A DNA stretch of 64,000 nucleotides from the NCBI GenBank assembly GCA_018897195.1, contig JAHILH010000001.1, forward strand, positions 476,565 through 540,564, in the 5' to 3' direction. Shown here one piece after another: positions 1,057-63,340 of the stretch. Within the stretch, counting starts at the first letter, position 1, and each line of letters starts with the position of its first letter. A model generated the notes under the pieces. The model had not been told where the DNA came from. It saw only the letters and a list, made by a program, of their open reading frames with translations, and ran no database searches. Position numbers and translations under genes: made by a program. Source of the stretch: Patescibacteria group bacterium. Its GTDB lineage: Bacteria; Patescibacteriota; Patescibacteriia; Patescibacteriales; UBA12075.

Positions 1057-1093
1057 CCCCCTCACCCCGACCCTCTCCCGCGGGGCGAGGGAG
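1057..1093 (+). repeat. Family-A GC-rich REP-like palindromic repeat, forward copy
   Basis: Sequence ccccctcaccccgaccctctcccgcggggcgagggag. The same unit recurs at 3604, 25219, 36571, 62426 and 63304, and in reverse at 62868. Its core is an imperfect hairpin, CCCTCTCCC-gcg-GGGCGAGGG. Confidence 0.9.
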
Positions 1094-1100
1094 TTTATAT

Positions 1101-1134
1101 TCCCTCTCCTTGCCAGGAGAGGGTTAGGGTGAGG
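1101..1134 (-). repeat. Family-A repeat, subfamily A2, inverted copy
   Basis: Sequence tccctctccttgccaggagagggttagggtgagg. It has a perfect 8-bp hairpin (CCCTCTCC/GGAGAGGG) followed by GGTNRGGGTGAGG. It sits 7 nt from the forward copy, facing it. Confidence 0.8.
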
Positions 1135-3468: not shown

Positions 3469-3525
3469 TCGATTAAATTTTATAATATCAGATGACTATT
3501 CACCTACACAAAAGACGGGTATTAA

Positions 3526-3560
3526 CTCCCTCTCCTTTGTAGGAGAGGGTCGGGGTGAGG
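3526..3560 (-). repeat. Family-A repeat, subfamily A2, inverted copy
   Basis: Sequence ctccctctcctttgtaggagagggtcggggtgagg. It has a perfect hairpin, CCCTCTCC-tttgta-GGAGAGGG. Confidence 0.85.
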
Positions 3561-3603
3561 TAGAGCGTGCGAAGAATATTATATAGGAAGTATTTTAACA
3601 ATG

Positions 3604-3641
3604 CTCCCTCACCCCGACCCTCTCCCGGCGGGGCGAGGGAG
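3604..3641 (+). repeat. Family-A repeat, forward copy
   Basis: Sequence ctccctcaccccgaccctctcccggcggggcgagggag. It lies 43 nt from the inverted copy at 3526-3560. Confidence 0.9.
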
Positions 3642-3686
3642 AATACGATGACACACTTCCTGCTATATAAATTCAAAGTCATATTT

Positions 3687-4991: not shown

Positions 4992-5035
4992 ATGTCTCCT
5001 TTTAAAGCAGTATATATAAATATTTATGTTTAATT

Positions 5036-5192
5036 TTCTAATTTTCAATTTTCAATTTTCGAAACAATTTTCAATGACACAATTTATTAATTTTCAAACA
5101 CGATAATCATTCTATTTATTGTTTGAAAATTGTTTCATTGAAAATTTAATCATTGTTTTGAAAATTGAAAATTGAAAATTCGAAAATTAATC
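5036..5192. repeat. Long imperfect palindrome with GAAAATT heptad repeats between lexA and dinB
   Basis: The left arm (aattttcaattttcaattttcgaaacaattttcaatgaca) and right arm (tgtttcattgaaaatt...ttgaaaattgaaaattgaaaattcgaaaatt) are near reverse complements. An inner 10-bp inverted repeat, TTTTCAAACA/TGTTTGAAAA, is at 5091-5100 and 5120-5129. Confidence 0.7.
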
Positions 5193-5751
5193 AATACTTC
5201 CGCACCACCGCCTTGACCACTGCCGAGATCTTTAATTCTTCTTTGGGATAAATCGGTTGAAAATCTTTATTTGCTGGTTCAAGGAAAATCACATTGCCTT
5301 TTTTCCGAAAATATTTAATCGTCCATTCGCCATCAACTTCGGCAATGACAATATCCCCGCTCCGTGGCGTGATATTTCGCTCGACAATCACCATGTCCCC
5401 CTCAACGATCCCCGCATCCTTCATCGAATCGCCGCGCACCTTGAGAATATAGGTCGCCTCACGATTGCCCACCAGATACTCATCGAAAGTAATCGTGTCC
5501 GCCAACTCCTCCTCGGCCGGCGACGGAAAGCCCGCCTCCACATAACCCAAAGTTCTAATCGCGCCATAAAGACTTCCTGGGCTCAAGCGCCCTTTACTAT
5601 CTTTACTCAAAAAACCCTCATCCACTAAGCGATTAACCAACTTAAAAACCGCGTTCTTGGACTTATAACCCAACAACGTCATGATCTCGCTATACACCGG
5701 CATCCGCCTATTTGTCTTATAAAATTTTTCAATTTTGTTTTTCACATCCAT
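5191..5751 (-). CDS. lexA: LexA repressor (wHTH plus S24 peptidase)
   Basis: Start set at the ATG at plus 5749-5751 (MDVKNKIEKFY...). An Ala-Gly cleavage-site context is present (YVEAGFPSPA), along with catalytic Ser (RGDSM) and Lys (IKYFRKKG) contexts. Confidence 0.9.
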   Translation of the reverse strand: MDVKNKIEKFYKTNRRMPVYSEIMTLLGYKSKNAVFKLVNRLVDEGFLSKDSKGRLSPGSLYGAIRTLGYVEAGFPSPAEEELADTITFDEYLVGNREATYILKVRGDSMKDAGIVEGDMVIVERNITPRSGDIVIAEVDGEWTIKYFRKKGNVIFLEPANKDFQPIYPKEELKISAVVKAVVRKY

Positions 5752-22265: not shown

Positions 22266-24098
22266 ATGGAGAAATTTATTTTACATACCAATTTTAAACC
22301 AACTGGCGACCAGCCTAAGGCAATTAAAGACCTGACCACTGGCTTAAAAAATAAACTCAAAGAACAGACCTTATTAGGTGTCACTGGCAGTGGCAAGACT
22401 TTTACCATGGCCAATATTATTAACAACGTCCAAAGGCCGACTCTGATCATCTCCCACAATAAAACCCTCGCTGCTCAACTCTACGGCGAATTTAAACAAT
22501 TTTTTCCCAACAATGCTGTCCATTATTTTGTATCCTATTACGACTACTACCAACCAGAGGCCTATCTTCCCCAAACAGACACCTACATTGAAAAGGAGGC
22601 GACCATTAACGAAGAAATTGACCGCTTGCGCCACTCAGCCACGCAATCACTACTTAATCGTGATGACGTGATTATCATCGCCTCCGTATCTTGTATTTAC
22701 GGACTTGGCTCAAAGGAAGACTACCAATCACTTTGTGAAAAATTCCAACAAGGACAAAAAATCAAACGCAACGATATCCTGCGTAAATTGATCAAGATTC
22801 AATATGAACGCAATGACCTTACTTTTGCTCGCGGACAATTTCGCGTCAAGGGCGAAACGATTTTTATCCATCTCGCCACTGGTGAAGCGATTGTGCGCAT
22901 TTCCATGGCTGGTGATTGGATTGACGAAATTGCCCTATTTACCATCAAGCCGGATGTTAACAAGATTATTCAGGCTAATGATTTAAAAATACGCGATGGA
23001 AAAATCTTAAACGAAATCTCCATCCTTCCTGCTAAGCATTTCATGACTCCCGAAGAACGCATAAAAAAAGCCGTCAGTAATATTCGCGCTGAATTAGTTA
23101 AGCGATTAAAAATATTATACAAAGAAGAAAAAATAGTGGAAGCACAACGCCTAGAACGGAAAACCAATTATGATTTGGAAATGATTGAAGAGGTTGGCTA
23201 TTGCAATGGTATTGAAAATTATTCCCGCCACCTTACTGACCGTCCAGATGGCTCATCACCGGAAACTTTGATCGATTTTTTTCCCAAAGATTTTTTAATC
23301 ATGGTTGACGAATCCCATGTCACCATTCCTCAGATCCGCGGCATGCACGCAGGTGACCAATCCCGTAAACAAACTCTCATCGACTTTGGTTTTCGTCTCC
23401 CCTCAGCCAAAGATAATCGCCCACTTAATTTTGAAGAATTTAATGCCAAGGTCAATCAGATTATTTATGTTAGTGCTACCCCATCAGAATATGAGATCCA
23501 TCGCTCTGCCCAAATTGCCAAGCAAATCATCCGCCCTACCGGATTGCTCGACCCAGGCGTAGAAGTGCGACCAAATGAAGGCCAGATTGATGACCTGATT
23601 AAAGAGGTTCGAGCCGCGACGGCCAAGGGCCAAAGAACTCTCATCACCACTTTGACCAAAAAAATGTCAGAAGCTCTGACTGAACATTTGGCCGAGCAAG
23701 GTATCAAAGTGCAATATCTGCACAGCGATGTCGAGACTATGGAGCGCGTGGAAATCCTCCGTGATCTGCGCCAAGGTCGCTATGATGTTCTCGTTGGTAT
23801 TAATTTATTACGCGAAGGTCTCGATCTCCCAGAAGTTTCCCTCGTTATTATTATTGACGCCGACATCGGCGGCTTTCTCCGCCACGCCACTGCACTCATG
23901 CAAACCATGGGGCGCGCCGCGCGCCACTCCGAAGGTCGCGTTATTATGTATGCAGACAAAATGACCCCAGCAATGAAATATGCTATCACCGAAACCAAAC
24001 GTCGTCGCAAAATTCAAGAAGCCTATAATTTGAAGAATAATATTACGCCGACGACAACCAAGGCTGGTCTTCACGAGAGTATTACGCAGTATAATTAA
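22266..24098 (+). CDS. uvrB: excinuclease ABC subunit B
   Basis: 610 aa. Motifs: PTGDQPKAI, Walker [15 protein letters not shown] box [17 protein letters not shown]. The protein ends about 25 aa after ITP, so I cannot see a C-terminal UVR domain. Confidence 0.93.
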
Positions 24099-24110
24099 AA
24101 AAGAAGACTA

Positions 24111-24897
24111 TTGTTGGCTCCATAGTCCCCCGCGTGGGCTGTGGAGCCTTAGTGCAATTAAATTATTTTCCGTTTTATTTAATTGTAAATTTAACTTGTG
24201 TTATAACAAAAACCTTTAACTATCTAATTTAATCAAACTATTATCATTTAATACTCGATTCCGCGCCGAAGAATACAACCAATCTTCAGACATACTCACA
24301 AAGCCTCTCTTGACGGGATTATTATGTATATAATTCAATTTTTGATTATAAAATATTTCCGTAGTCATCACTTCTGGATAATTTTCTCTTTGCCATATTT
24401 GATTTTCATAACCCTCTTTTTTCCTAAAACTATTATCTAACAAATTTTTTATATATTTTCTATTATCAGTTTTTAATAATTTCAAAATCTCCCTAGTTGT
24501 GTGTTTTTTAAAATCACTAACTATCTGTGACAATTTAACCCCGTCCATTGCTCGACATATCATATGGATATGGTTTGTCATTATTACATACTCAAACAAC
24601 AATAGTCCTTTATTTTTTTGACAATATTTTAAACTATCAATAATTACATCAAAATATTCTGTCTTTGTAAATATATCTATCCACTCAATTGTAGTGATAG
24701 TTATAAAATGTGTATCGTCTTCATTTTCTATATTAATTCTAAGGGTTGGCATAATATTATTTAATAATTACAATATTGTTGGCTCCATGCAACCGCGTCC
24801 CGGTGGAGCCGAACTGCAATTACTTAAATTACAATGATGAAATATTTAATAATTGCACTAAGGCTCCACAGCCCTAACGGGACTATGGAGCCAACAG
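24111..24897. mobile_element. RAYT (IS200-like Y1 transposase) unit flanked by REP hairpins
   Basis: REP copies sit at 24111-24159 and 24777-24822 (same orientation) and at 24851-24897 (inverted; its reverse complement matches 24111-24159). Each folds as GGCTCCAYAG..CC/GG..CTRTGGAGCC. The unit fills the uvrB/uvrC convergent gap. Confidence 0.8.
24216..24752 (-). CDS. REP-associated tyrosine transposase (IS200-like Y1_Tnp family)
   Basis: 178 aa. HUH motif within MTNHIHMICR. Catalytic Tyr context is LNYIHNNPVKRG. No tnpB-like second gene is present. Confidence 0.85.
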   Translation of the reverse strand: MPTLRINIENEDDTHFITITTIEWIDIFTKTEYFDVIIDSLKYCQKNKGLLLFEYVIMTNHIHMICRAMDGVKLSQIVSDFKKHTTREILKLLKTDNRKYIKNLLDNSFRKKEGYENQIWQRENYPEVMTTEIFYNQKLNYIHNNPVKRGFVSMSEDWLYSSARNRVLNDNSLIKLDS

Positions 24898-24901
24898 CTG
24901 A

Positions 24902-26275
24902 TTATCTTTTTAAAAATCTCTTTGCTCTTATTCCTCGGTGATATTCAATCGCAAACCGATGCGCCTCATCGCGGACACGTTTGATGAGGTGCAAGGCTGG
25001 AGACGCCAAAGGTAATTCTAGTGGTTTTTTTTCACCAGGGAAAAATATTTTGTCTGGTGCATTCGCCCCTCGCAAACCATCACCCTTTGAAATCGCAATC
25101 ACAGGAATATCTAATTTATGTTTTTTCAAAATCCGCACTAATACACCCAACTGCGCTTTGCCACCATCCACGATAAGAAGGTCAGGATTCTCCCAAATGT
25201 CCTTATCTTTAATAATTTTCCCCTCACCCCGACCCTCTCCCGCCGGGGCGAGGGAGCTATCTATTTGATATTCGTGATCAAAATGTTTCATGCGTCTCTC
25301 CAAGACTTCTTCCAACATCCAGACATCGCCCTCCAAATCCAAATCTTTTATTTTAAATTTTCGATATTCATTCTTGTCCGGCTCACCATCTTTGAAAACA
25401 ACCATTGACCCCACTGCCTCTTTGCCTTGTAGATTAGAAATATCATAACCTTCAATTCGATTAGGAACCCGTGACAACCCCAAAGTCTTGGCCAATTCCA
25501 CCACATCGCCGGCATACTTATCCGCTAAGCTCAGAACTTTAGAATGATCCAAAACATTATTAATATTTTTTAGTTCGTATTTCAATTTACCTAATTCATT
25601 TTGAACTTGTTCATCTGTGTTATCGCCTTTTTTTAATTCTTTCTCGAGTTTCGTAATTCGTAATTCGTAATTTTTTATCAAGACAGACCTACCTCCATCC
25701 AAAAATAAAACAATCTGCTTTATAGTCTTGGCATATTCCTGTTTCGAAACCAAGCTCTCACAAACACCTTGGCATTTTCCAAGACGATAATACAAACAAG
25801 CGCGCTTAGGCATATTTTTACATGAACGATATGGCCAAATTTTTCTCAAGGCTTTCAAGGTTTCGCGTACTGCTTCGGTGCTCACAAAAGGCCCAAAATA
25901 TTTTCCCTTCTTATCCAAATTCCGTGTCATAAAAATCCGCGGATATTCATCCTCGGTCGAAACTTCGATATAAATATAACGTTTGTCGTCGCGCATGACC
26001 ACATTATACTCCGGTTGAAATTTCTTGATTAAATTCGCCTCCAGTAACAAAGCCTCAATCTCGCTCTCAACCTCAATCCATTCAATACTCGCCACCTTCT
26101 TTAACATCGAATACTTCGCCGGCGTATGGCTCGTCGCCTCGCGCCAATACGAAAGCACTCGACTGCGCAGGTCAACTGCTTTGCCGATATAAATAATCTT
26201 CCCGCTCGCATCTTTGAACTGATACGAACCGGGAGTTTTGGGAATATCTAGATTTTTAACTTGTTCCAAATTCAT
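24902..26275 (-). CDS. uvrC: excinuclease ABC subunit C (short form)
   Basis: 457 aa. GIY-YIG N-terminus (GSYQFKDASGKIIYIGKAVDLRSRV), Cys cluster, and an endonuclease V-like region (LLIVDGGKAQL, DEAHRFAI). I see no C-terminal HhH domain. It contains a family-A repeat in frame. Confidence 0.9.
   Translation of the reverse strand: MNLEQVKNLDIPKTPGSYQFKDASGKIIYIGKAVDLRSRVLSYWREATSHTPAKYSMLKKVASIEWIEVESEIEALLLEANLIKKFQPEYNVVMRDDKRYIYIEVSTEDEYPRIFMTRNLDKKGKYFGPFVSTEAVRETLKALRKIWPYRSCKNMPKRACLYYRLGKCQGVCESLVSKQEYAKTIKQIVLFLDGGRSVLIKNYELRITKLEKELKKGDNTDEQVQNELGKLKYELKNINNVLDHSKVLSLADKYAGDVVELAKTLGLSRVPNRIEGYDISNLQGKEAVGSMVVFKDGEPDKNEYRKFKIKDLDLEGDVWMLEEVLERRMKHFDHEYQIDSSLAPAGEGRGEGKIIKDKDIWENPDLLIVDGGKAQLGVLVRILKKHKLDIPVIAISKGDGLRGANAPDKIFFPGEKKPLELPLASPALHLIKRVRDEAHRFAIEYHRGIRAKRFLKR
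25219..25256 (+). repeat. Family-A repeat inside the uvrC coding sequence
   Basis: Sequence tcccctcaccccgaccctctcccgccggggcgagggag. On the uvrC strand it reads in frame as SLAPAGEGRGEGK. Confidence 0.9.
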
Positions 26276-36570: not shown

Positions 36571-36609
36571 CTGCCCCTCACCCCGACCCTCTCCCGCGGG
36601 GCGAGGGAG
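36571..36609 (+). repeat. Family-A repeat, forward copy (intergenic)
   Basis: Sequence ctgcccctcaccccgaccctctcccgcggggcgagggag. It shares the extended 5' flank agactgcccc with the copy at 63304. Confidence 0.9.
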
Positions 36610-41514: not shown

Positions 41515-42126
41515 TTATTTATACTTATCTTCTATTGCCGCCAAGAGTTTAGCAGTTGCCGCTGGATCAACAATAAATAAAAATTTTGTTCCAACATTTA
41601 ACTCCTTAATATTAAATTTAACTTCAAAAATTAACACTACGCCAGAGACTTTGCCAATTTCAACAGCCACTGAATTCATAATCGAATCTGCTGTGTCGAC
41701 AACCACATCCGCAACGGAATGCAAAAGGCTCATGTTTAAAAACTTAGAAAAGGCCGACAATGAGGCTCCAGCCATAATATTACCAACCTCTTTTACAGCT
41801 GATACCTCTAACTCTTTTTGGCTGCCAGCACAGTCGACATCATCCATTAAAATAGTAGCTATTTTTGACTCATCGCCGTCGGAGAACATAAAAAACATTA
41901 CTCCACTTGCATCGCCATAAATCTTTAAAATAGCCGTTGTTACTTCCTCGTCTTTATTTTCAATAAATTTACTTAAATTTTGAATTTCATCAACATACGC
42001 CCTTGGCACTGATAAATCTACTTTTTTGTGAATCATTTGTGACAAAGCCGTTGAGGCATGGCTGGCACCGATGTTCATAATTTCCTTCAATTGATCGATT
42101 TGGAACTCATCTATTCTTTGTTGCAT
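41515..42126 (-). CDS. cheC: CheC-like CheY-P phosphatase, paralogue 1
   Basis: 203 aa. The first site fits D-x3-E-x2-N-x22-P exactly (DQLKEIMN...DLSVP). The second site is S-x3-E-x2-N and lacks the terminal Pro. Confidence 0.8.
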   Translation of the reverse strand: MQQRIDEFQIDQLKEIMNIGASHASTALSQMIHKKVDLSVPRAYVDEIQNLSKFIENKDEEVTTAILKIYGDASGVMFFMFSDGDESKIATILMDDVDCAGSQKELEVSAVKEVGNIMAGASLSAFSKFLNMSLLHSVADVVVDTADSIMNSVAVEIGKVSGVVLIFEVKFNIKELNVGTKFLFIVDPAATAKLLAAIEDKYK

Positions 42127-42172
42127 ATAATTATCTTGGTTAGCATGTAAAAAAATAATTTTTTACACAATT

Positions 42173-42784
42173 TTAATATTTTAATTTTAAAGCATCTAAC
42201 AATGTCTTTGTTGCCTTCGCATCAATAAAAAACATAAAATTTGTATCTATGTCCTGCTCTCCACTGATACTAAAATCAATTTGAAACATCAATGCCACGC
42301 CCTTCTCACCCACAACCTCGATACCGACCTTTTTAACTACATCAATTAAACTTCCACAAAAAACCTTAGAAAAAGAATGAAGCAAATTTAAATCTAAAAA
42401 TTTGGAAAAGGCGGTCAGTGAAGCGCCAACTAAAACATTACCGAGCTCCTCTACCACCGACGATTCAAGCTCTTTTTTTATTTTCTTATCTTTTATGTAC
42501 TTCAACAATAAATCAATTAATTTTTGCTCATTTTTATGCGAAAACAAAAAATACATCAAGCCATTAATGTCACCAAAGACTTTTATCAAAACCGCTCTTA
42601 CCTGATCATTGGGATTGGTAAAATATTTCTCAATATTATCAATAGTATCAATGTGCGCATATGGAATTGTCAAATCAACTGGCTGTTCAACCATTTGTGA
42701 CAAGGCCGTTGAAGCATGGCTAGCCCCAATATTCATAATTTCTTTCAGTTGATCGATCTGGAATTCACTTATTTCTAATTTCAT
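42173..42784 (-). CDS. cheC: CheC-like CheY-P phosphatase, paralogue 2
   Basis: 203 aa. DQLKEIMNIGASHASTALSQMVEQPVDLTIP fits the motif. The C-terminus FMFFIDAKATKTLLDALKLKY is shared with paralogue 3. Confidence 0.8.
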   Translation of the reverse strand: MKLEISEFQIDQLKEIMNIGASHASTALSQMVEQPVDLTIPYAHIDTIDNIEKYFTNPNDQVRAVLIKVFGDINGLMYFLFSHKNEQKLIDLLLKYIKDKKIKKELESSVVEELGNVLVGASLTAFSKFLDLNLLHSFSKVFCGSLIDVVKKVGIEVVGEKGVALMFQIDFSISGEQDIDTNFMFFIDAKATKTLLDALKLKY

Positions 42785-42830
42785 AAAATTGTCTTTGATT
42801 AATGTGCTATAAATAATTATTCACACAACT

Positions 42831-43442
42831 CTAATATTTTAATTTTAAAGCATCTAATAATGTTTTTGTAGCCTTATCGTCAATAAAAAACATAAAATTA
42901 GTATCCACCTTGTCATCGCCAATCGTAAAATCAATTTGAAACATCAAAACTGTTCCATCCACGCCTACAGCTCCAGCACTGACTCTTTCCACAACCTCCC
43001 TTAGGGTTCCGTCCAACACTTCAGAGGCTGAATGGGGCAAGTTTAAGTTCATAAATTTGGAAAAAGCCGCCAATGACGCCCCTGACAAAATATTACCAAG
43101 CTCTTCAACAACCGTCGCATTTAGCTCATCTTTAATACTTTTGTCTTTTATGCCAAGCAACAATAAATCGGTTAATTTTTTCTTATTTTTATACGAAAAT
43201 AAAAAATACATTGCCCCCTTAATATCACCGGAGACTTTTACCAGAGCCGCACTAATTGTTTCATCACATTGACTATAATATTTATTAACGTTGTTAACTG
43301 TATCCATATGAACAAAGGGTATTGACAATCCCACCGGCTGATTAACCAACCGCGAAAGCGCCGTTGAGGCGTGGCTGGCACCAATATTCATAATCTCCAT
43401 GAGTTGATCAATTTGAATTTCATCCAATTTGGTTTGTAGCAT
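42831..43442 (-). CDS. cheC: CheC-like CheY-P phosphatase, paralogue 3
   Basis: 203 aa. DQLMEIMNIGASHASTALSRLVNQPVGLSIP fits the motif. The 3' end and downstream spacer are near-identical to those of paralogue 2. Confidence 0.8.
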   Translation of the reverse strand: MLQTKLDEIQIDQLMEIMNIGASHASTALSRLVNQPVGLSIPFVHMDTVNNVNKYYSQCDETISAALVKVSGDIKGAMYFLFSYKNKKKLTDLLLLGIKDKSIKDELNATVVEELGNILSGASLAAFSKFMNLNLPHSASEVLDGTLREVVERVSAGAVGVDGTVLMFQIDFTIGDDKVDTNFMFFIDDKATKTLLDALKLKY

Positions 43443-43446
43443 ATTT

Positions 43447-45309
43447 TTATTTCTTAAAATTTGTTAATAATAAATTCACAATATCTAAAATTAAAATTGT
43501 CCGACCATCACCCAGGATTGTTGAACCAGAAAAACCCCTGACATTTCGCAAAATTGGTGACAATGGCTTCACTGTCACTTCCTGCTCACCCACTAACTTG
43601 TCTATCACTAAGCCAATTAATTCATCGCCTTTCTTAACAATCACTACCACCTTGTCAACATTTTTAAGCACTTCATCGTCAGCTTTCTCACTCTTTTCAA
43701 TGACATGATTATTGTCAACAACAATTATATTGCCAAATTTCTCCCGCAAATCAATCAAGGGCACTTTTATGCCATCAACAATGGCAACATTATTGTCAGC
43801 CATTCTTTTTATATTTTCAGCATTAACTAAAACAGATCTATCAATATTGGAAAAAGGGATAGCATAAATCAATTCACCAACCTCCACCAATAAAGAATTA
43901 ATGATTGCCAAAGTCAAAGGCAGTTCTAAAGTGAACCGCGCACCTGGATTTAGATTTTCAACAATAACTCGACCACCAGATGATTCCGCGAATGATTTAA
44001 CTACATTCAAGCCAACACCACGACCGGAAATTTCGGTAACCACATCGTTGGTAGAAAGTTTTGGATGGAATAACAAATTCATAACTTCCTGATTGGTCAT
44101 AAGATCAACCTCCTTGGCGCTAGCAATGCCTCTTTTAACAGCGGCCTGCTTAACTTTTTCTATATCAATTGACTGATCATTATTCTCCACGATTATTAAA
44201 GCATTTTCACGGTCACGTTTTGCTTCCAATCTTACGTAACCTTCTGTTTTAATGCCGTGGTCAATAGCGTTTCTAAGTAGATGTACTAATGGCTCTCCCA
44301 ACTTGTCAACAATTGATCGATCTAATTCTAAATCAGAGCCATGAACAAAAAATTCCACTTTCTTCTCCTGCCTCTTTGATAAGTCCCTAACCATACGTGG
44401 GAAACGAGCAAAAACCTGCTCCACCGGCACCAATCGTGCTTGCATCACTTCATACTGCAGACTTTGAATTAATAAGCCGACGTGGTCCGTAACTTCTTGC
44501 AACTCTTTATTTTTTAAACCCATGCGCTGTAAGGCCATTTTGTCTATTACCAACTCCTCCACCAAATCCATCAAAGCATCTAATCTTTTTATCGGCACTT
44601 TAATATATTCAATTTTTTTAACCGAATCATCAATCTCGTCCCTGCCAGTCCCAGTCTTTGTTTTTATCGTTTTTTGGTTATCAATATCCTTATCTTCGAT
44701 TTTTGGTTCTTCGATTTTTGGTTCTTCGATTTTTGGTTCTTCGATTTTTGGTTCTTCGATTTTTGGTTCTTCGATTTTTGGTTCTTCGATTTTGATCTCA
44801 ACTGACCGTGGCACTTCCAACCCTGCTTTTATTTGATTTTCCGCTTTTGCATCCTCCGCTTTTGCATCCTCCGCCTTTTTTCTATTTGACTTGCCGACCC
44901 CTTCAGTATTAACGCCAGTTGCTTTTTTTAACTCATCAGCCAAACCCTTTAAGACCAATTCCTTGTCAGTCTGCTTAATCGAATCCAAGGATTCCTCTAG
45001 CTTATCAACTGCCTGAAAGGCATAATCAATCATTTCTGGAGTCAGCTCCACGATGTTGTTTCGCGCGCCATCATAAACATCTTCCATGACATGAGCCAAA
45101 TAAGCCATATCAATAAAACTCATCGTTGCTGAAGAGCCTTTAATGGTATGCGAGGCTCGCATCAAGACATCTAAAACATCTTTTACAGAATCATTAGATT
45201 CGCCATTATTAATTGCCTTTTCCAAAACAAGCAAATTTTCATTTAAAATTTGCAGCTGATCCTCACTTTCGGAAACGTATAAATCTTTAAATTTTGAGAT
45301 GTCGGTCAT
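43447..45309 (-). CDS. cheA: chemotaxis histidine kinase CheA
   Basis: 620 aa. Hpt motif is ASHTIKGSSATM. A dimerisation region is present. HATPase motifs are HLLRNAIDHG and GRGVGLNVV. A CheW-like C-terminal domain follows. The linker carries (EEPKI)x6. Confidence 0.92.
   Translation of the reverse strand: MTDISKFKDLYVSESEDQLQILNENLLVLEKAINNGESNDSVKDVLDVLMRASHTIKGSSATMSFIDMAYLAHVMEDVYDGARNNIVELTPEMIDYAFQAVDKLEESLDSIKQTDKELVLKGLADELKKATGVNTEGVGKSNRKKAEDAKAEDAKAENQIKAGLEVPRSVEIKIEEPKIEEPKIEEPKIEEPKIEEPKIEEPKIEDKDIDNQKTIKTKTGTGRDEIDDSVKKIEYIKVPIKRLDALMDLVEELVIDKMALQRMGLKNKELQEVTDHVGLLIQSLQYEVMQARLVPVEQVFARFPRMVRDLSKRQEKKVEFFVHGSDLELDRSIVDKLGEPLVHLLRNAIDHGIKTEGYVRLEAKRDRENALIIVENNDQSIDIEKVKQAAVKRGIASAKEVDLMTNQEVMNLLFHPKLSTNDVVTEISGRGVGLNVVKSFAESSGGRVIVENLNPGARFTLELPLTLAIINSLLVEVGELIYAIPFSNIDRSVLVNAENIKRMADNNVAIVDGIKVPLIDLREKFGNIIVVDNNHVIEKSEKADDEVLKNVDKVVVIVKKGDELIGLVIDKLVGEQEVTVKPLSPILRNVRGFSGSTILGDGRTILILDIVNLLLTNFKK
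44694..44790. repeat. perfect 15-bp tandem repeat (6 units plus a partial) inside cheA
   Basis: cttcgatttttggtt is repeated head to tail and encodes (EEPKI)n on the minus strand. A second 15-bp doublet, ttttgcatcctccgc x2, is at about 44841-44870 and encodes KAEDA x2. Confidence 0.9.
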
Positions 45310-61361: not shown

Positions 61362-62858
61362 CTAGAATTTCAGATAAGCCCAGGGTAGCTTTTCGAGAGT
61401 TTGGGCAATAAAAATTATATAAGCCAAGGAAATTTTGGCGGGAAAAAATAAGACCAGAGCAAAACTTGGGAAAACAAAACTGGCAATCAGACCAGCAATT
61501 AGCGACGCTAACAAGAACGGCAGCGTCCAGAGAATTAATAAATTTGCCAAGGGGGCGATGAGAGAAAATTGCTTGAAACTGAAAAATAAGATTGGGAAAG
61601 TGAGAATCTGAATTAGCAATGAAATCGAAATAATCTCGAAGAAGATTTTGTAAAATTGCCTATTTAAAAATGGATATTTATCAATTAACTTTGCGTAAAG
61701 TTTAAGAAATTGTGGATGCAAAAAAATAATCGCAAAAACCGCCAAGAACGACAGCTGGAAGCCAGCGTCATAACGTAGCAACATGGGATTGAATAATAGC
61801 ATAACCGCTGCGGCAAAAACTAGAGAAATGTCCATACGATTGAGTCGACCTAAATGTATGCCAAGCAAAACAAGCATACCCATCACCAATGACCGCACCG
61901 CTGCCGCGGTCGCGCCAATCATAATAATATACACCGTCAAGGTTATTGAAATCACATAAAAAAGTTGCTGCCGCCAAAATCCAAGCGCCAAGAAAACGAA
62001 GGCCAAGATGACAATCAGAATCGCGACGTGCGACCCGGAAATCGAGATCACGTGGCTCAAACCCGTGCGTGCAAAACTATTATTCAAATTCTCATCCATC
62101 GCTCCCATATCCCCCAAAATCATCGCCCGCCCAAAACTCGCTTCCGGCTCGCTCATGCCTTGGTTAATTTTGGTGCGCAGGATATTTTTGAATTTATAGA
62201 TATTGGAATAAATTAAATCGACCACGTCCAGCTCCGTATCCAGCTTTTTGATATTTTTGGGATAATAACAAACGCTATAAATATCATAGCGCGCCAGATA
62301 TTTATCATACGCAAAACCTTCAAATTCTTCTGGTGCTTTTAATTTACAGGTCAATGAGACGACATCGCCGTAGGCAAATTCGGGATAGAGATTTGTTGTC
62401 ACTAAAACCTTACCTTCAACCACTTCCCCCTCACCCCGACCCTCTCCCGCGGGGCGAGGGAGTTTAAATTCCTGCTTTGCGATTTGTAGATTATTAAGAG
62501 TTATTTTCTGATTACTCTTTTTTAAACTCGGCTCTTCACTCACCTTGCCAATCAATTGCACTTCTTGATTATTATAATACCAAATCTTATTAGCGTCCGT
62601 TTTTGGAATTGTCAAAGAGAAACGCCAGATGCCAAGCAAAGCAAAAAAGCTAAGTAAAAAAAACATATTTATTAGGATATGTTTCTTATTGGCTGTATTC
62701 CAGACTAAAAAAGTCAGAACTGTGAAAATGATACTGGCAGCAAACCACTGGATGTCATTTTTAAGGAAGCTAATAGGCAAAAAAGATGCGATGGTAATGC
62801 CGGTTATAAAGGCGAGACAGGAATAGAAGAATAGTTTTGATTTGGAAAAAGGAAGCAT
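61362..62858 (-). CDS. comEC: DNA internalisation competence protein ComEC (OB/DUF4131 plus competence domain; no metallo-beta-lactamase domain seen)
   Basis: Start moved to the ATG at plus 62856-62858 (MLPFSKSKLFFYS). The track's N-terminal extension reads through a family-A repeat and overlaps the DUF559 gene. The protein is multi-TM. FARTGLSHVISISGSHVAIL is typical of ComEC. It contains a family-A repeat in frame. Confidence 0.85.
   Translation of the reverse strand: MLPFSKSKLFFYSCLAFITGITIASFLPISFLKNDIQWFAASIIFTVLTFLVWNTANKKHILINMFFLLSFFALLGIWRFSLTIPKTDANKIWYYNNQEVQLIGKVSEEPSLKKSNQKITLNNLQIAKQEFKLPRPAGEGRGEGEVVEGKVLVTTNLYPEFAYGDVVSLTCKLKAPEEFEGFAYDKYLARYDIYSVCYYPKNIKKLDTELDVVDLIYSNIYKFKNILRTKINQGMSEPEASFGRAMILGDMGAMDENLNNSFARTGLSHVISISGSHVAILIVILAFVFLALGFWRQQLFYVISITLTVYIIMIGATAAAVRSLVMGMLVLLGIHLGRLNRMDISLVFAAAVMLLFNPMLLRYDAGFQLSFLAVFAIIFLHPQFLKLYAKLIDKYPFLNRQFYKIFFEIISISLLIQILTFPILFFSFKQFSLIAPLANLLILWTLPFLLASLIAGLIASFVFPSFALVLFFPAKISLAYIIFIAQTLEKLPWAYLKF
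62426..62462 (+). repeat. Family-A repeat inside the comEC coding sequence
   Basis: Sequence ccccctcaccccgaccctctcccgcggggcgagggag. On the comEC strand it reads in frame as LPRPAGEGRGEGE. Confidence 0.9.
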
Positions 62859-62867
62859 GCTAATATA

Positions 62868-62903
62868 TTCCCTCGCCCCGCGGGAGAGGGCCAGGGTGAG
62901 GGG
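62868..62903 (-). repeat. Family-A repeat, inverted copy
   Basis: Sequence ttccctcgccccgcgggagagggccagggtgagggg. It lies 5 nt downstream of the DUF559 stop codon. Confidence 0.85.
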
Positions 62904-62908
62904 TCGGT

Positions 62909-63289
62909 TTATAAATGAAGAATGTTTACCCGCTCTCGACATGTCGCCACAATATCCTCCAATACTAATATTAAATTTTCTTTTACGTCTGAATTGTTAT
63001 ACCTCTTTACTAAAAAACCCTGCTCTTCTAAAAATTTTTGTCGCTTAACGTCATATTGAATTTCCTTGTCAGTGCTATGCGTAGCGCCATCAAGTTCAAC
63101 AACTAACTTAGCCTCAAAACAACAAAAATCAACTATATATTTATCAATACCGAATTGTTTTTTAAATTTAAAATCCCCGAGCTGACTATCTCTGACTCTT
63201 CCCCATAAAATTCGCTCACAAGTTATGGGCTGTTTTCTTAAAACTTTACGGATATTTTTTTGTTGGGGTTGGTTAAATAATTTTGTCAT
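62909..63289 (-). CDS. DUF559 (Vsr-like / restriction endonuclease-fold) domain protein
   Basis: 126 aa. Motifs: ERILWGRVRDSQLGDFKFKKQFGIDKYIVDFCCFEAKLVVELDGATH...DVKRQKFLEEQGFLVKRY. Confidence 0.8.
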   Translation of the reverse strand: MTKLFNQPQQKNIRKVLRKQPITCERILWGRVRDSQLGDFKFKKQFGIDKYIVDFCCFEAKLVVELDGATHSTDKEIQYDVKRQKFLEEQGFLVKRYNNSDVKENLILVLEDIVATCRERVNILHL

Positions 63290-63303
63290 TTTTTTCTAAG
63301 ACT

Positions 63304-63340
63304 GCCCCTCACCCCAACCCTCTCCCGCGGGGCGAGGGAG
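63304..63340 (+). repeat. Family-A repeat, forward copy
   Basis: Sequence gcccctcaccccaaccctctcccgcggggcgagggag. It lies 14 nt upstream of the DUF559 start codon. Confidence 0.9.

Follow-up and report, generated by a model that had tools for sequence, protein, structure and literature searches.

BoxC/PIT/TMECO repeats lie in frame in uvrC and comEC of a Parcubacteria genome, with a DUF559 nuclease cassette as their likely driver

How does a short GC-rich palindromic repeat come to lie in frame inside two conserved genes, and what multiplies it in the surrounding genome? The question is raised by a 64-kb stretch of the 565-kb contig JAHILH010000001.1 (hereafter the window, i.e. the whole stretch analysed; 37.9% GC), which comes from Candidatus Parcubacteria and thus from the kind of candidate phyla radiation (CPR) genome that an initial annotation, made from the sequence, had recognised. 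The canonical unit of the repeat is 36 nt long, and seven of its nine copies are intergenic, the other two being carried in frame by uvrC and comEC. We propose that the repeat belongs to the known BoxC/PIT/TMECO family, that its solo in-gene copies act like the Rickettsia palindromic elements, and that a cassette comprising a DUF559 nuclease gene between inverted copies of the repeat is the likely driver of its spread; taken as a whole, we regard this reading as probable.

The uvrC gene (24902..26275, minus strand; 457 amino acids, aa), which encodes a GIY-YIG domain and the UvrC RNase H-like endonuclease domain, is host to a 37-nt copy, CCCCTCACCCCGACCCTCTCCCGCCGGGGCGAGGGAG, at 25220-25256 of the minus strand; the copy noted initially is real, its start being one base off (25219). 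The open reading frame (ORF) runs across the repeat as ...HEYQIDSSLAPAGEGRGEGKIIKDKD..., residues 341-352 being SLAPAGEGRGEG. Similarly, comEC (61362..62858, minus strand; 498 aa; DUF4131 and Competence domains) is host to a 36-nt copy at 62427..62462 (minus strand), which the ORF crosses as ...QEFKLPRPAGEGRGEGEVVEGKV... and which specifies residues 133-144, LPRPAGEGRGEG. Both copies have the same orientation and keep the downstream frame, as originally described: the G-rich strand is the sense strand in each gene, and the two copies have a common reading frame over AGEGRGEG. The extra loop base of the uvrC copy (first loop CGGC, versus CGC in comEC) shifts the first four codons only (SLAP versus LPRP) and leaves the ORF open. 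The comEC copy is identical to intergenic copies at 36/36 positions and the uvrC copy at 36/37, the difference being the one inserted loop base, and in both UvrC and ComEC the frame is kept and the invariant residues downstream are intact.

Alignment with orthologues bore out the view that the two segments are insertions. The closest UvrC orthologues (P0003 and P0004, 83% and 82% identical) are devoid of the segment, and a syntenic uvrC locus (L002) is empty at the DNA level, while another relative (L003) carries a longer, decayed insert at the same site, with the same right-hand end GAGGGTCGGGGTGAGGGG. The UvrC insert had been assigned to an inter-domain linker; its actual place is within the RNase H-like endonuclease domain (PF08459, residues 263-443). 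The AlphaFold2 model (mean predicted local distance difference test, pLDDT, 75) places it in a disordered loop, in line with the surface position considered initially, residues 336-358 being coil with a pLDDT below 50, between helix 317-330 and strand 366-370. In the Thermotoga protein (2NRT), RRY and PNLL are separated by 5 residues, versus 34 in the window UvrC, and the length of the same loop ranges from 7 to 63 aa across 107 Parcubacteria homologues. Repeat-derived peptides occur in 19 of these 107 proteins and fall into four orientation/frame classes (GEGxGEG, ERVGVR, SPxPSP and PHPxPL); a Falkowbacteria clade has kept TSPQPSPYKGEGG in 13 UvrC protein clusters; and the DNA of three loci (L211, L212 and L213) harbours repeat units at the loop site, in both orientations. 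The repeat units at the UvrC loop go back to three or four independent events at the least. The uvrC loop of P0008 (L211) contains two adjacent elements, one being a BoxC-type unit in the C orientation and the other a triplex-type motif of a different kind, namely a tailed purine/pyrimidine hairpin (TCCCTCCTCC-TTGCCA-AGGAGGAGGA-TAGGAGGAGG).

As for ComEC, the orthologues P0122-P0125 (76-87% identical) are devoid of residues 133-144, the DNA alignment showing a clean gap, and the insert lies within DUF4131 (residues 37-201), as had been anticipated. Repeat-derived peptides are likewise found in the OB loop of P0129 and P0174. A different repeat-like peptide, ...SLRGERSPVITRDKLRNLGESANTTGLLRPFQSLAMTE..., is aligned in the same loop of P0140 and P0141, which suggests that a second short-repeat family also inserts in frame in CPR genes.

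The count of nine copies in 64 kb was reproduced by combining blastn-short with a core scan, four copies being identical 36-mers, and the 22-nt left half of the unit gave 8 matches at up to 3 mismatches in the window versus 0 in 100 dinucleotide-preserving shuffles. About 57 kb of DNA from relatives yielded a single copy, against nine in the window. The seven intergenic copies, whose number also stands, include two inverted pairs: the copy at 1058..1093 (minus strand), downstream of recQ, is paired with one of a second subtype at 1100..1134 (plus strand), which has a perfect 9-bp hairpin, a TTA second loop (TCG in its partner) and a ...GGTGAGGTAG end; and the copies at 3526-3560 and 3604-3641 are inverted relative to each other. 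A further copy (36574..36609, minus strand) is located between the stop of an 82-aa ORF (36619) and the start of ruvX (36536). The last two copies, 62869..62903 (plus strand) and 63305..63340 (minus strand), bound the DUF559 gene; the former lies within the longest comEC ORF, yet 5' of the NCBI start (P0121, 498 aa), by which it is counted as intergenic. The comEC copy and the copy at 1055-1103 share 49 nt at 98% identity, flanks included (10 nt on the 5' side and 3 nt on the 3' side). A target-site duplication or insertion-site consensus was sought at the window copies and none was found, the flanks being merely A/T-rich in a 38% GC genome. All six repeat loci of the window adjoin DNA-metabolism genes (recQ, a dinB-like IMS gene, uvrC, ruvX, comEC and DUF559), a feature that was noticed post hoc.

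Which family the repeat belongs to can be judged from its pattern. The BoxC/PIT/TMECO repeats have been known for about 30 years and are among the most conserved bacterial non-coding motifs; they were reportedly studied by Bergler and Bachellier in the 1990s and, as a triplex motif, by Hoyne and Maher in 2000, and we know of no accepted function or spreading mechanism for them. In a regular-expression search with the pattern CCCTCNCCC-N3-6-GGGNGAGGG-N3-GGGNGAGGG, taken from Holder et al. 2015 (PMC4666352), who named the family TMECO (earlier BoxC and PIT), seven of the nine window copies were exact matches, including those in uvrC and comEC, and the other two fitted with 8-nt blocks. Judged by this pattern, the window repeat is a member of the BoxC/PIT/TMECO family and not a repetitive extragenic palindromic (REP) sequence, the label it had been given at first; the neighbouring REP-associated tyrosine transposase (RAYT)-like gene has different hairpins. 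In each unit, a C-rich arm is followed by two G-rich blocks, the first complementary to the arm and the second a mirror of the first, with four G3 tracts spaced 2-3 nt apart, and computed DNA folding gave hairpins of -9.6 to -12.9 kcal/mol, either G block being able to pair with the C arm. The likeness to the family extends from the sequence pattern and three-block layout to the size (33-37 nt), the dispersal of near-identical copies, the inverted pairs of two subtypes (type A plus type B in E. coli) and the variation of copy number between close relatives. Holder et al. (PMC4666352) counted 3610 copies in 262 proteobacterial genomes, 23 of them in E. coli K-12, where they are "always located intergenically" and include five inverted pairs combining two subtypes, and they reported a stable triplex in vitro. 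Kaplan et al. 2016 (PMC5100583) described the same motif, found "only within intergenic regions", as a G-quadruplex-hairpin-duplex switch. These triplex and G-quadruplex structures, observed by circular dichroism and nuclear magnetic resonance, are those of the E. coli sequence, not of the window variant (PMC4666352, PMC5100583).

The family proved to be widely spread. A scan with the 19-nt core GGAGAGGGYYRGGGTGAGG, taking one genome per species, gave at least 120 loci and at least 148 copies; among the matches listed, the hosts are Proteobacteria, Cyanobacteria, Planctomycetes, Verrucomicrobia, Chloroflexi, Acidobacteria, Bacteroidetes and Actinobacteria, and nearly all the copies listed share the layout CCCTCTCC(C), variable loop, (G)GGAGAGGG, YYR, GGGTGAGGG. 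A match to the window unit exists in 5012 of the 5426 complete E. coli genomes, the lldD-trmL spacer being one such site, whereas the motif is reportedly absent or poorly conserved in Salmonella and Yersinia. The core is also present in at least 120 viral contigs (IMG/VR), and the 36-nt window unit in 125 plasmid records (blastn, PLSDB), of which 47 are Azospirillum replicons, so that viral contigs and plasmids are possible vehicles for spread between phyla. At the gathering threshold, Rfam reported just 4 tRNAs in the window and assigned the repeat to no RNA family. Compared with the family as described, the window repeat thus stands apart in three respects: two of its nine copies are in frame in genes, whereas the family was held to be strictly intergenic; its host is a 38% GC CPR bacterium, whereas the known hosts were mainly Proteobacteria and Cyanobacteria; and the repeat occurs in viral contigs and plasmids and is tied to DUF559 genes, whereas no link to mobile elements had been described.

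Residence in genes is not peculiar to the window. Five of the six frames of the unit are free of stop codons (one G-strand frame has a TGA), and the canonical length of 36 nt is a multiple of three. Outside the CPR, 52 of the 148 copies listed lie in long stop-free stretches; Pfam domains span the in-frame copy in a type I HsdR (L070), an IleS (L035, Devosia) and a LigA (L104), as they do, by eye, in an Mfd (L011) and an ABC ATPase (L016). Being carried in frame is a general property of the BoxC/TMECO family that had not been described; the motif is not confined to intergenic DNA, and it is present in reduced CPR genomes, viral contigs and plasmids. The literature searched contained no report of BoxC/TMECO copies inside genes, in CPR genomes or linked to DUF559, and nothing relevant on the encoded peptides; what the initial annotation had presumed to be undescribed is therefore described as an intergenic element, while its in-gene and CPR copies are unreported in that literature. 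As the motif is repeatedly carried in frame in conserved proteins of many phyla, it contributes to protein length variation. Conversely, GEGRGEG, SPxPSP and PHPxPL peptides in annotated proteins flag repeat insertions or over-extended ORFs, and the junction peptides predicted from in-gene copies include IDSSLAPAGEGR and EFKLPRPAGEGR. Among the in-gene copies of other phyla, Mfd, LigA and HsdR are DNA-metabolism genes, which was again noticed post hoc.

These features recall the Rickettsia palindromic elements, which Ogata and colleagues reportedly showed in 2000 to be translated as extra surface segments that the host protein tolerates. Similarly to those elements, the window repeat is a short palindromic, putatively selfish sequence found in frame in conserved genes, at tolerated surface positions, and the genes remain open and conserved downstream of the insert, as the parallel drawn at the outset implied. 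The two are set apart by size and host, the Rickettsia elements being 100-150 nt long and confined to Rickettsia, whereas the unit studied here has 36-37 nt and occurs across bacteria; to our knowledge, the Rickettsia elements have no partner gene and are unrelated in sequence to the BoxC-type repeat. By analogy, then, the comparison is supported as a description of how the repeat may work. We propose that the repeat family multiplied recently in this Parcubacteria genome, and that two solo copies would have settled in surface loops of variable length, one within the endonuclease domain of UvrC and the other within the OB/DUF4131 region of ComEC. The inserts are most likely translated, as predicted from the kept frame, the stop-free unit and the tolerated loop. 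The in-gene copies may persist because their length keeps the frame, five of six frames are stop-free and the Gly/Glu/Arg/Pro-rich dodecapeptide probably forms a harmless flexible loop; the repeat would then be selfish DNA filtered by selection, not an adaptation.

A candidate for the driver lies next to comEC. DUF559 is a very common, functionally uncharacterised domain, and the DUF559 gene of the window (62909..63289, minus strand; 126 aa) encodes a predicted Vsr-like PD-(D/E)xK nuclease (PF04480, 2.8e-32; 111 bits for a cut-off of 20.6), in which all the residues invariant in the DUF559 alignment (E25, D54, E65, D67, D80 and R96) are present. The DUF559 profile matches the structure 3HRL (6.6e-31) and that of the Vsr-fold homing endonuclease I-Bth0305I (3R3P, 9.7e-5). 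The gene is enclosed in a 472-bp cassette (62869-63340), whose left end is the copy at 63305..63340, upstream of the gene and with its G-rich strand on the DUF559 sense strand, and whose right end is the inverted downstream copy at 62869..62903, C-rich on the same strand; the cassette ends 10 nt before the start of comEC. In two relatives (L127 and L130), a 74-77-aa ORF occupies the spacer upstream of comEC instead of the cassette. The closest DUF559 homologues, on Parcubacteria-like contigs, are carried by the same cassette in three different gene contexts: upstream of comEC (L336, 79% identical), which in this relative is yet devoid of an internal repeat; between membrane protein and ABC exporter genes (L337 and L338, 70%); and between hydrogenase and ECF transporter genes (L340, 62%). 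The inverted pair at 3526-3560 and 3604-3641 belongs to a stretch (3524..3653, plus strand) that consists of the first repeat, the 5' leader with a start-codon remnant, AATG and the inverted repeat; positions 3524-3597 match the L337 cassette's 5' end at about 90% identity and 3600-3653 its 3' end at 93%, the gene of about 350 nt being missing. By comparison with L337, this stretch is a cassette that has lost its DUF559 gene.

The association between repeat and gene was also found from both sides. In a survey starting from DUF559 (a metagenome scan; 80 loci, 230 kb), 22 strict repeat cores were spread over 15 of the 80 loci; 20 of these cores lay no farther than 140 nt from the gene, in most cases with the G-rich strand upstream and an inverted copy downstream. 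Flanking inverted repeats of at least 16 nt occur in 47 of 77 DUF559 loci, all built as pyrimidine arm, loop and purine arm, with sequences that differ by lineage; the 28 kb no farther than 150 nt from the ends of DUF559 genes contain 133 hairpins of this build and the other 174 kb contain 20, a 41-fold difference in density, and 69 of the 80 loci have at least one. Starting from the repeat, a profile search over the 240 genome and viral loci listed gave 7 DUF559 domains, 6 of them within 150 nt of a copy, as in Acinetobacter portensis (L026) and in a viral contig with a full cassette (L261); a single-sequence phmmer search found a DUF559 neighbour in just 3 of the 120 repeat genome loci listed. 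In a metagenome-assembled Variovorax genome (L006; JANOCL010000198.1, 2-2161), metG carries the whole repeat-DUF559-repeat cassette in frame, between Anticodon_3 and tRNA_bind, as one 720-aa stop-free stretch in which Pfam recognises tRNA-synt_1g, Anticodon_3, DUF559 (2.9e-30) and tRNA_bind. In a second type of flanking repeat, DUF559 identity is 69% versus 46%, a difference confounded by relatedness, and this co-variation was not used as evidence. No link between DUF559 and these or other palindromic repeats was met in the literature searched.

E. coli offers a native counterpart. In K-12 (NC_000913.3; L214, 7030-7840), the DUF559 gene ycjD ends in a degenerate copy of the repeat, and a canonical TMECO lies about 170 nt downstream; the probability of a TMECO occurring so close by chance is about 0.002 (23 copies in 4.6 Mb). 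The gene is accessory (3378 of 5426 complete E. coli genomes), and TMECO counts follow phylogroup, with 19-30 in A/B1 strains, which have ycjD, and 1-2 in B2 strains, one of which (UTI89, L335) has a fabI-sapF locus without ycjD. In K-12, ycjD and the downstream TMECO are separated by a partial duplicate of the ycjD 3' end, while in UTI89 an 8-kb TetR/RND/MFS efflux island occupies the fabI-sapF interval in place of ycjD.

From these associations we infer that the most likely source and driver of the repeat is the repeat-DUF559-inverted repeat cassette located 10 nt upstream of comEC. The DUF559 nuclease would mobilise the repeat by acting, as a Vsr-like enzyme, on the repeat ends; gene-less cassettes and solo repeats would derive from the full cassette as non-autonomous forms, standing to it as REPs do to RAYT transposases. 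The association with DUF559 is tight and directional, and a series leads from the putatively autonomous cassette to the gene-less derivative and the solo repeat. A bolder proposal, which we find arguable but would sooner doubt than assert, is that DUF559 proteins, including E. coli YcjD, are dedicated nucleases of BoxC/TMECO repeats and that the cassette is an autonomous selfish element across bacteria. If so, REP/RAYT would have a counterpart of a second kind, in which the enzyme has the PD-(D/E)xK Vsr fold and its target is a non-B DNA fold, with paired and solo repeats as non-autonomous offspring that can land in frame in essential genes, and with the whole cassette able to be carried in frame, as in metG; ycjD would be the native example for genetic and biochemical testing. 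More speculatively, the target recognised may be a G-T mismatch resulting from pairing of the C arm with the GGGTGAGGG block.

The proposed cassette has partial likenesses to several known systems. The logic of REP/RAYT, i.e. many short GC-rich hairpin repeats and few small nuclease genes flanked by inverted repeats, is the one proposed here, whereas RAYTs are HUH/Y1 single-strand DNA transposases acting on tagged REPs; the putative partner in our case is PD-(D/E)xK Vsr-like and the repeat is a purine/pyrimidine mirror. MITEs, the miniature inverted-repeat transposable elements, arise by internal deletion of autonomous elements bounded by inverted repeats, and 3524-3653 has the form of such a deletion of a gene-carrying element; unlike MITEs, it goes with no transposase of a known insertion-sequence family, a search for target-site duplications gave none, and solo 36-nt units, which have no terminal inverted repeats, are dispersed as well. 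Finally, like Vsr-fold homing endonucleases, the small DUF559 nuclease gene stands alone and has the behaviour of a mobile insert, to the point of lying in frame within metG, but it has no intron or intein context, and classical homing leaves the spread of solo repeats unexplained.

The main alternative to a driving cassette is spread without an enzyme, in which the non-B structure stalls replication and leads to template switching, gene conversion or illegitimate recombination, DUF559 genes tending to sit in, or to be recruited to, such recombination-prone spots; we think this rather unlikely. Several observations nevertheless agree with it and weigh against the role that we ascribe to the nuclease. 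Holder et al. (PMC4666352) found raised local variability at TMECO sites, for which they proposed fork stalling or slippage, and they found neither a mobile-element link nor a function in E. coli. The shared flanks of the comEC copy and 1055-1103 resemble patch copying more than precise transposition; neither a target-site duplication nor a clean empty site could be defined; about 97% of the repeat loci listed have no DUF559 gene nearby; and the repeat-flanked DUF559 proteins form no distinct clade (49% identity within versus 46% outside). At about 120 aa, the nuclease falls short of a complete transposase, and neither an integrase nor a strand-transfer function is apparent. Moreover, O157:H7 genomes are devoid of ycjD at fabI-sapF, yet strain Xuzhou21 carries 11 TMECOs, so that the correlation between ycjD and TMECO is just a trend and is phylogenetically confounded. 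As to the timing, the uvrC insertion may be older and lost in L002, not recent, since L003 shares its GAGGGTCGGGGTGAGGGG end, and other indels must have occurred, since the UvrC loop is just 9 aa longer than that of P0003 though the repeat adds 12. Enzyme-free spread leaves unexplained, however, the fixed layout of DUF559 between inverted copies, the same cassette in three unrelated contexts, the gene-less derivative and the 41-fold enrichment of hairpins at DUF559 ends.

That the repeat is a functional nucleic-acid signal kept by selection, such as a G-quadruplex/hairpin regulatory switch or a pause site, appears improbable to us. Its conservation across phyla is striking, Kaplan et al. (PMC5100583) proposed a regulatory switch, the Falkowbacteria UvrC insert is kept in 13 clusters and the six window loci adjoin DNA-metabolism genes; but this last link is a post hoc one, copies are present or absent between close relatives, insertions in the same loop occur in both orientations and several frames, and in the published E. 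coli tests the motif had neither promoter nor terminator nor regulatory activity and showed no bias towards any gene function (PMC4666352). Mobilisation as a REP by the RAYT-like Y1 transposase beside uvrC has very little to commend it beyond its setting, i.e. a Y1_Tnp ORF (24216..24752) lying 150 nt from uvrC and REP/RAYT being the classic model for short GC-rich palindromic repeats: this gene has its own, unrelated local hairpins and no copy of the BoxC-type repeat flanks it, for which reasons it was rejected as the mobiliser, and elsewhere the same repeat occurs with DUF559 flanks instead. The unit starts with CTCCCTC and ends with GAGGGG, without a GTAG or CGTC end tag, whereas REPs are reported by Di Nocera et al. 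2013 to carry one of these conserved tetranucleotides at one palindrome end. We give the least credence of all to an artefact, i.e. a chimeric assembly or ancestral dodecapeptides that resemble the repeat by coincidence, although the genome was assembled from a metagenome and misassembly classically occurs at repeats. The identical 457-aa UvrC, repeat included, is encoded by an independently assembled ENA MEGAHIT contig (L001), which makes chimeric assembly, the error feared initially, unlikely; coincidence is at odds with the near-perfect identity to intergenic copies (versus 0 in shuffles), the intact frame and downstream invariant residues, the closest orthologues devoid of the segments and the repeat DNA present in the same loop of other lineages.

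The RAYT-like gene is part of an element of about 800 bp located between uvrB and uvrC (24095-24913), which comprises the Y1_Tnp ORF (minus strand) and three REP-like hairpins at 24095-24160, 24776-24825 and 24850-24913. These hairpins (GGCTCCATAGTCCC...GGGCTGTGGAGCC) occur at that locus only in the window, and the element is a separate insertion, as the uvrC-uvrB gap of L002 is just 28 nt.

Other repeats were observed in the window. A long A/T-rich inverted repeat (5027-5193), with 74-nt arms that are 80% complementary, a 19-nt spacer and AATTTTCAA-type units, is placed between the start of the dinB-like gene and the next ORF. In the region 41515-43442, three tandem paralogous 203-aa ORFs (41515..42126, 42173..42784 and 42831..43442) lie on repeat units of 655-658 nt, and a 15-nt tandem repeat of at least 6 units (44657-44793) is found within a 620-aa ORF (43447..45309).

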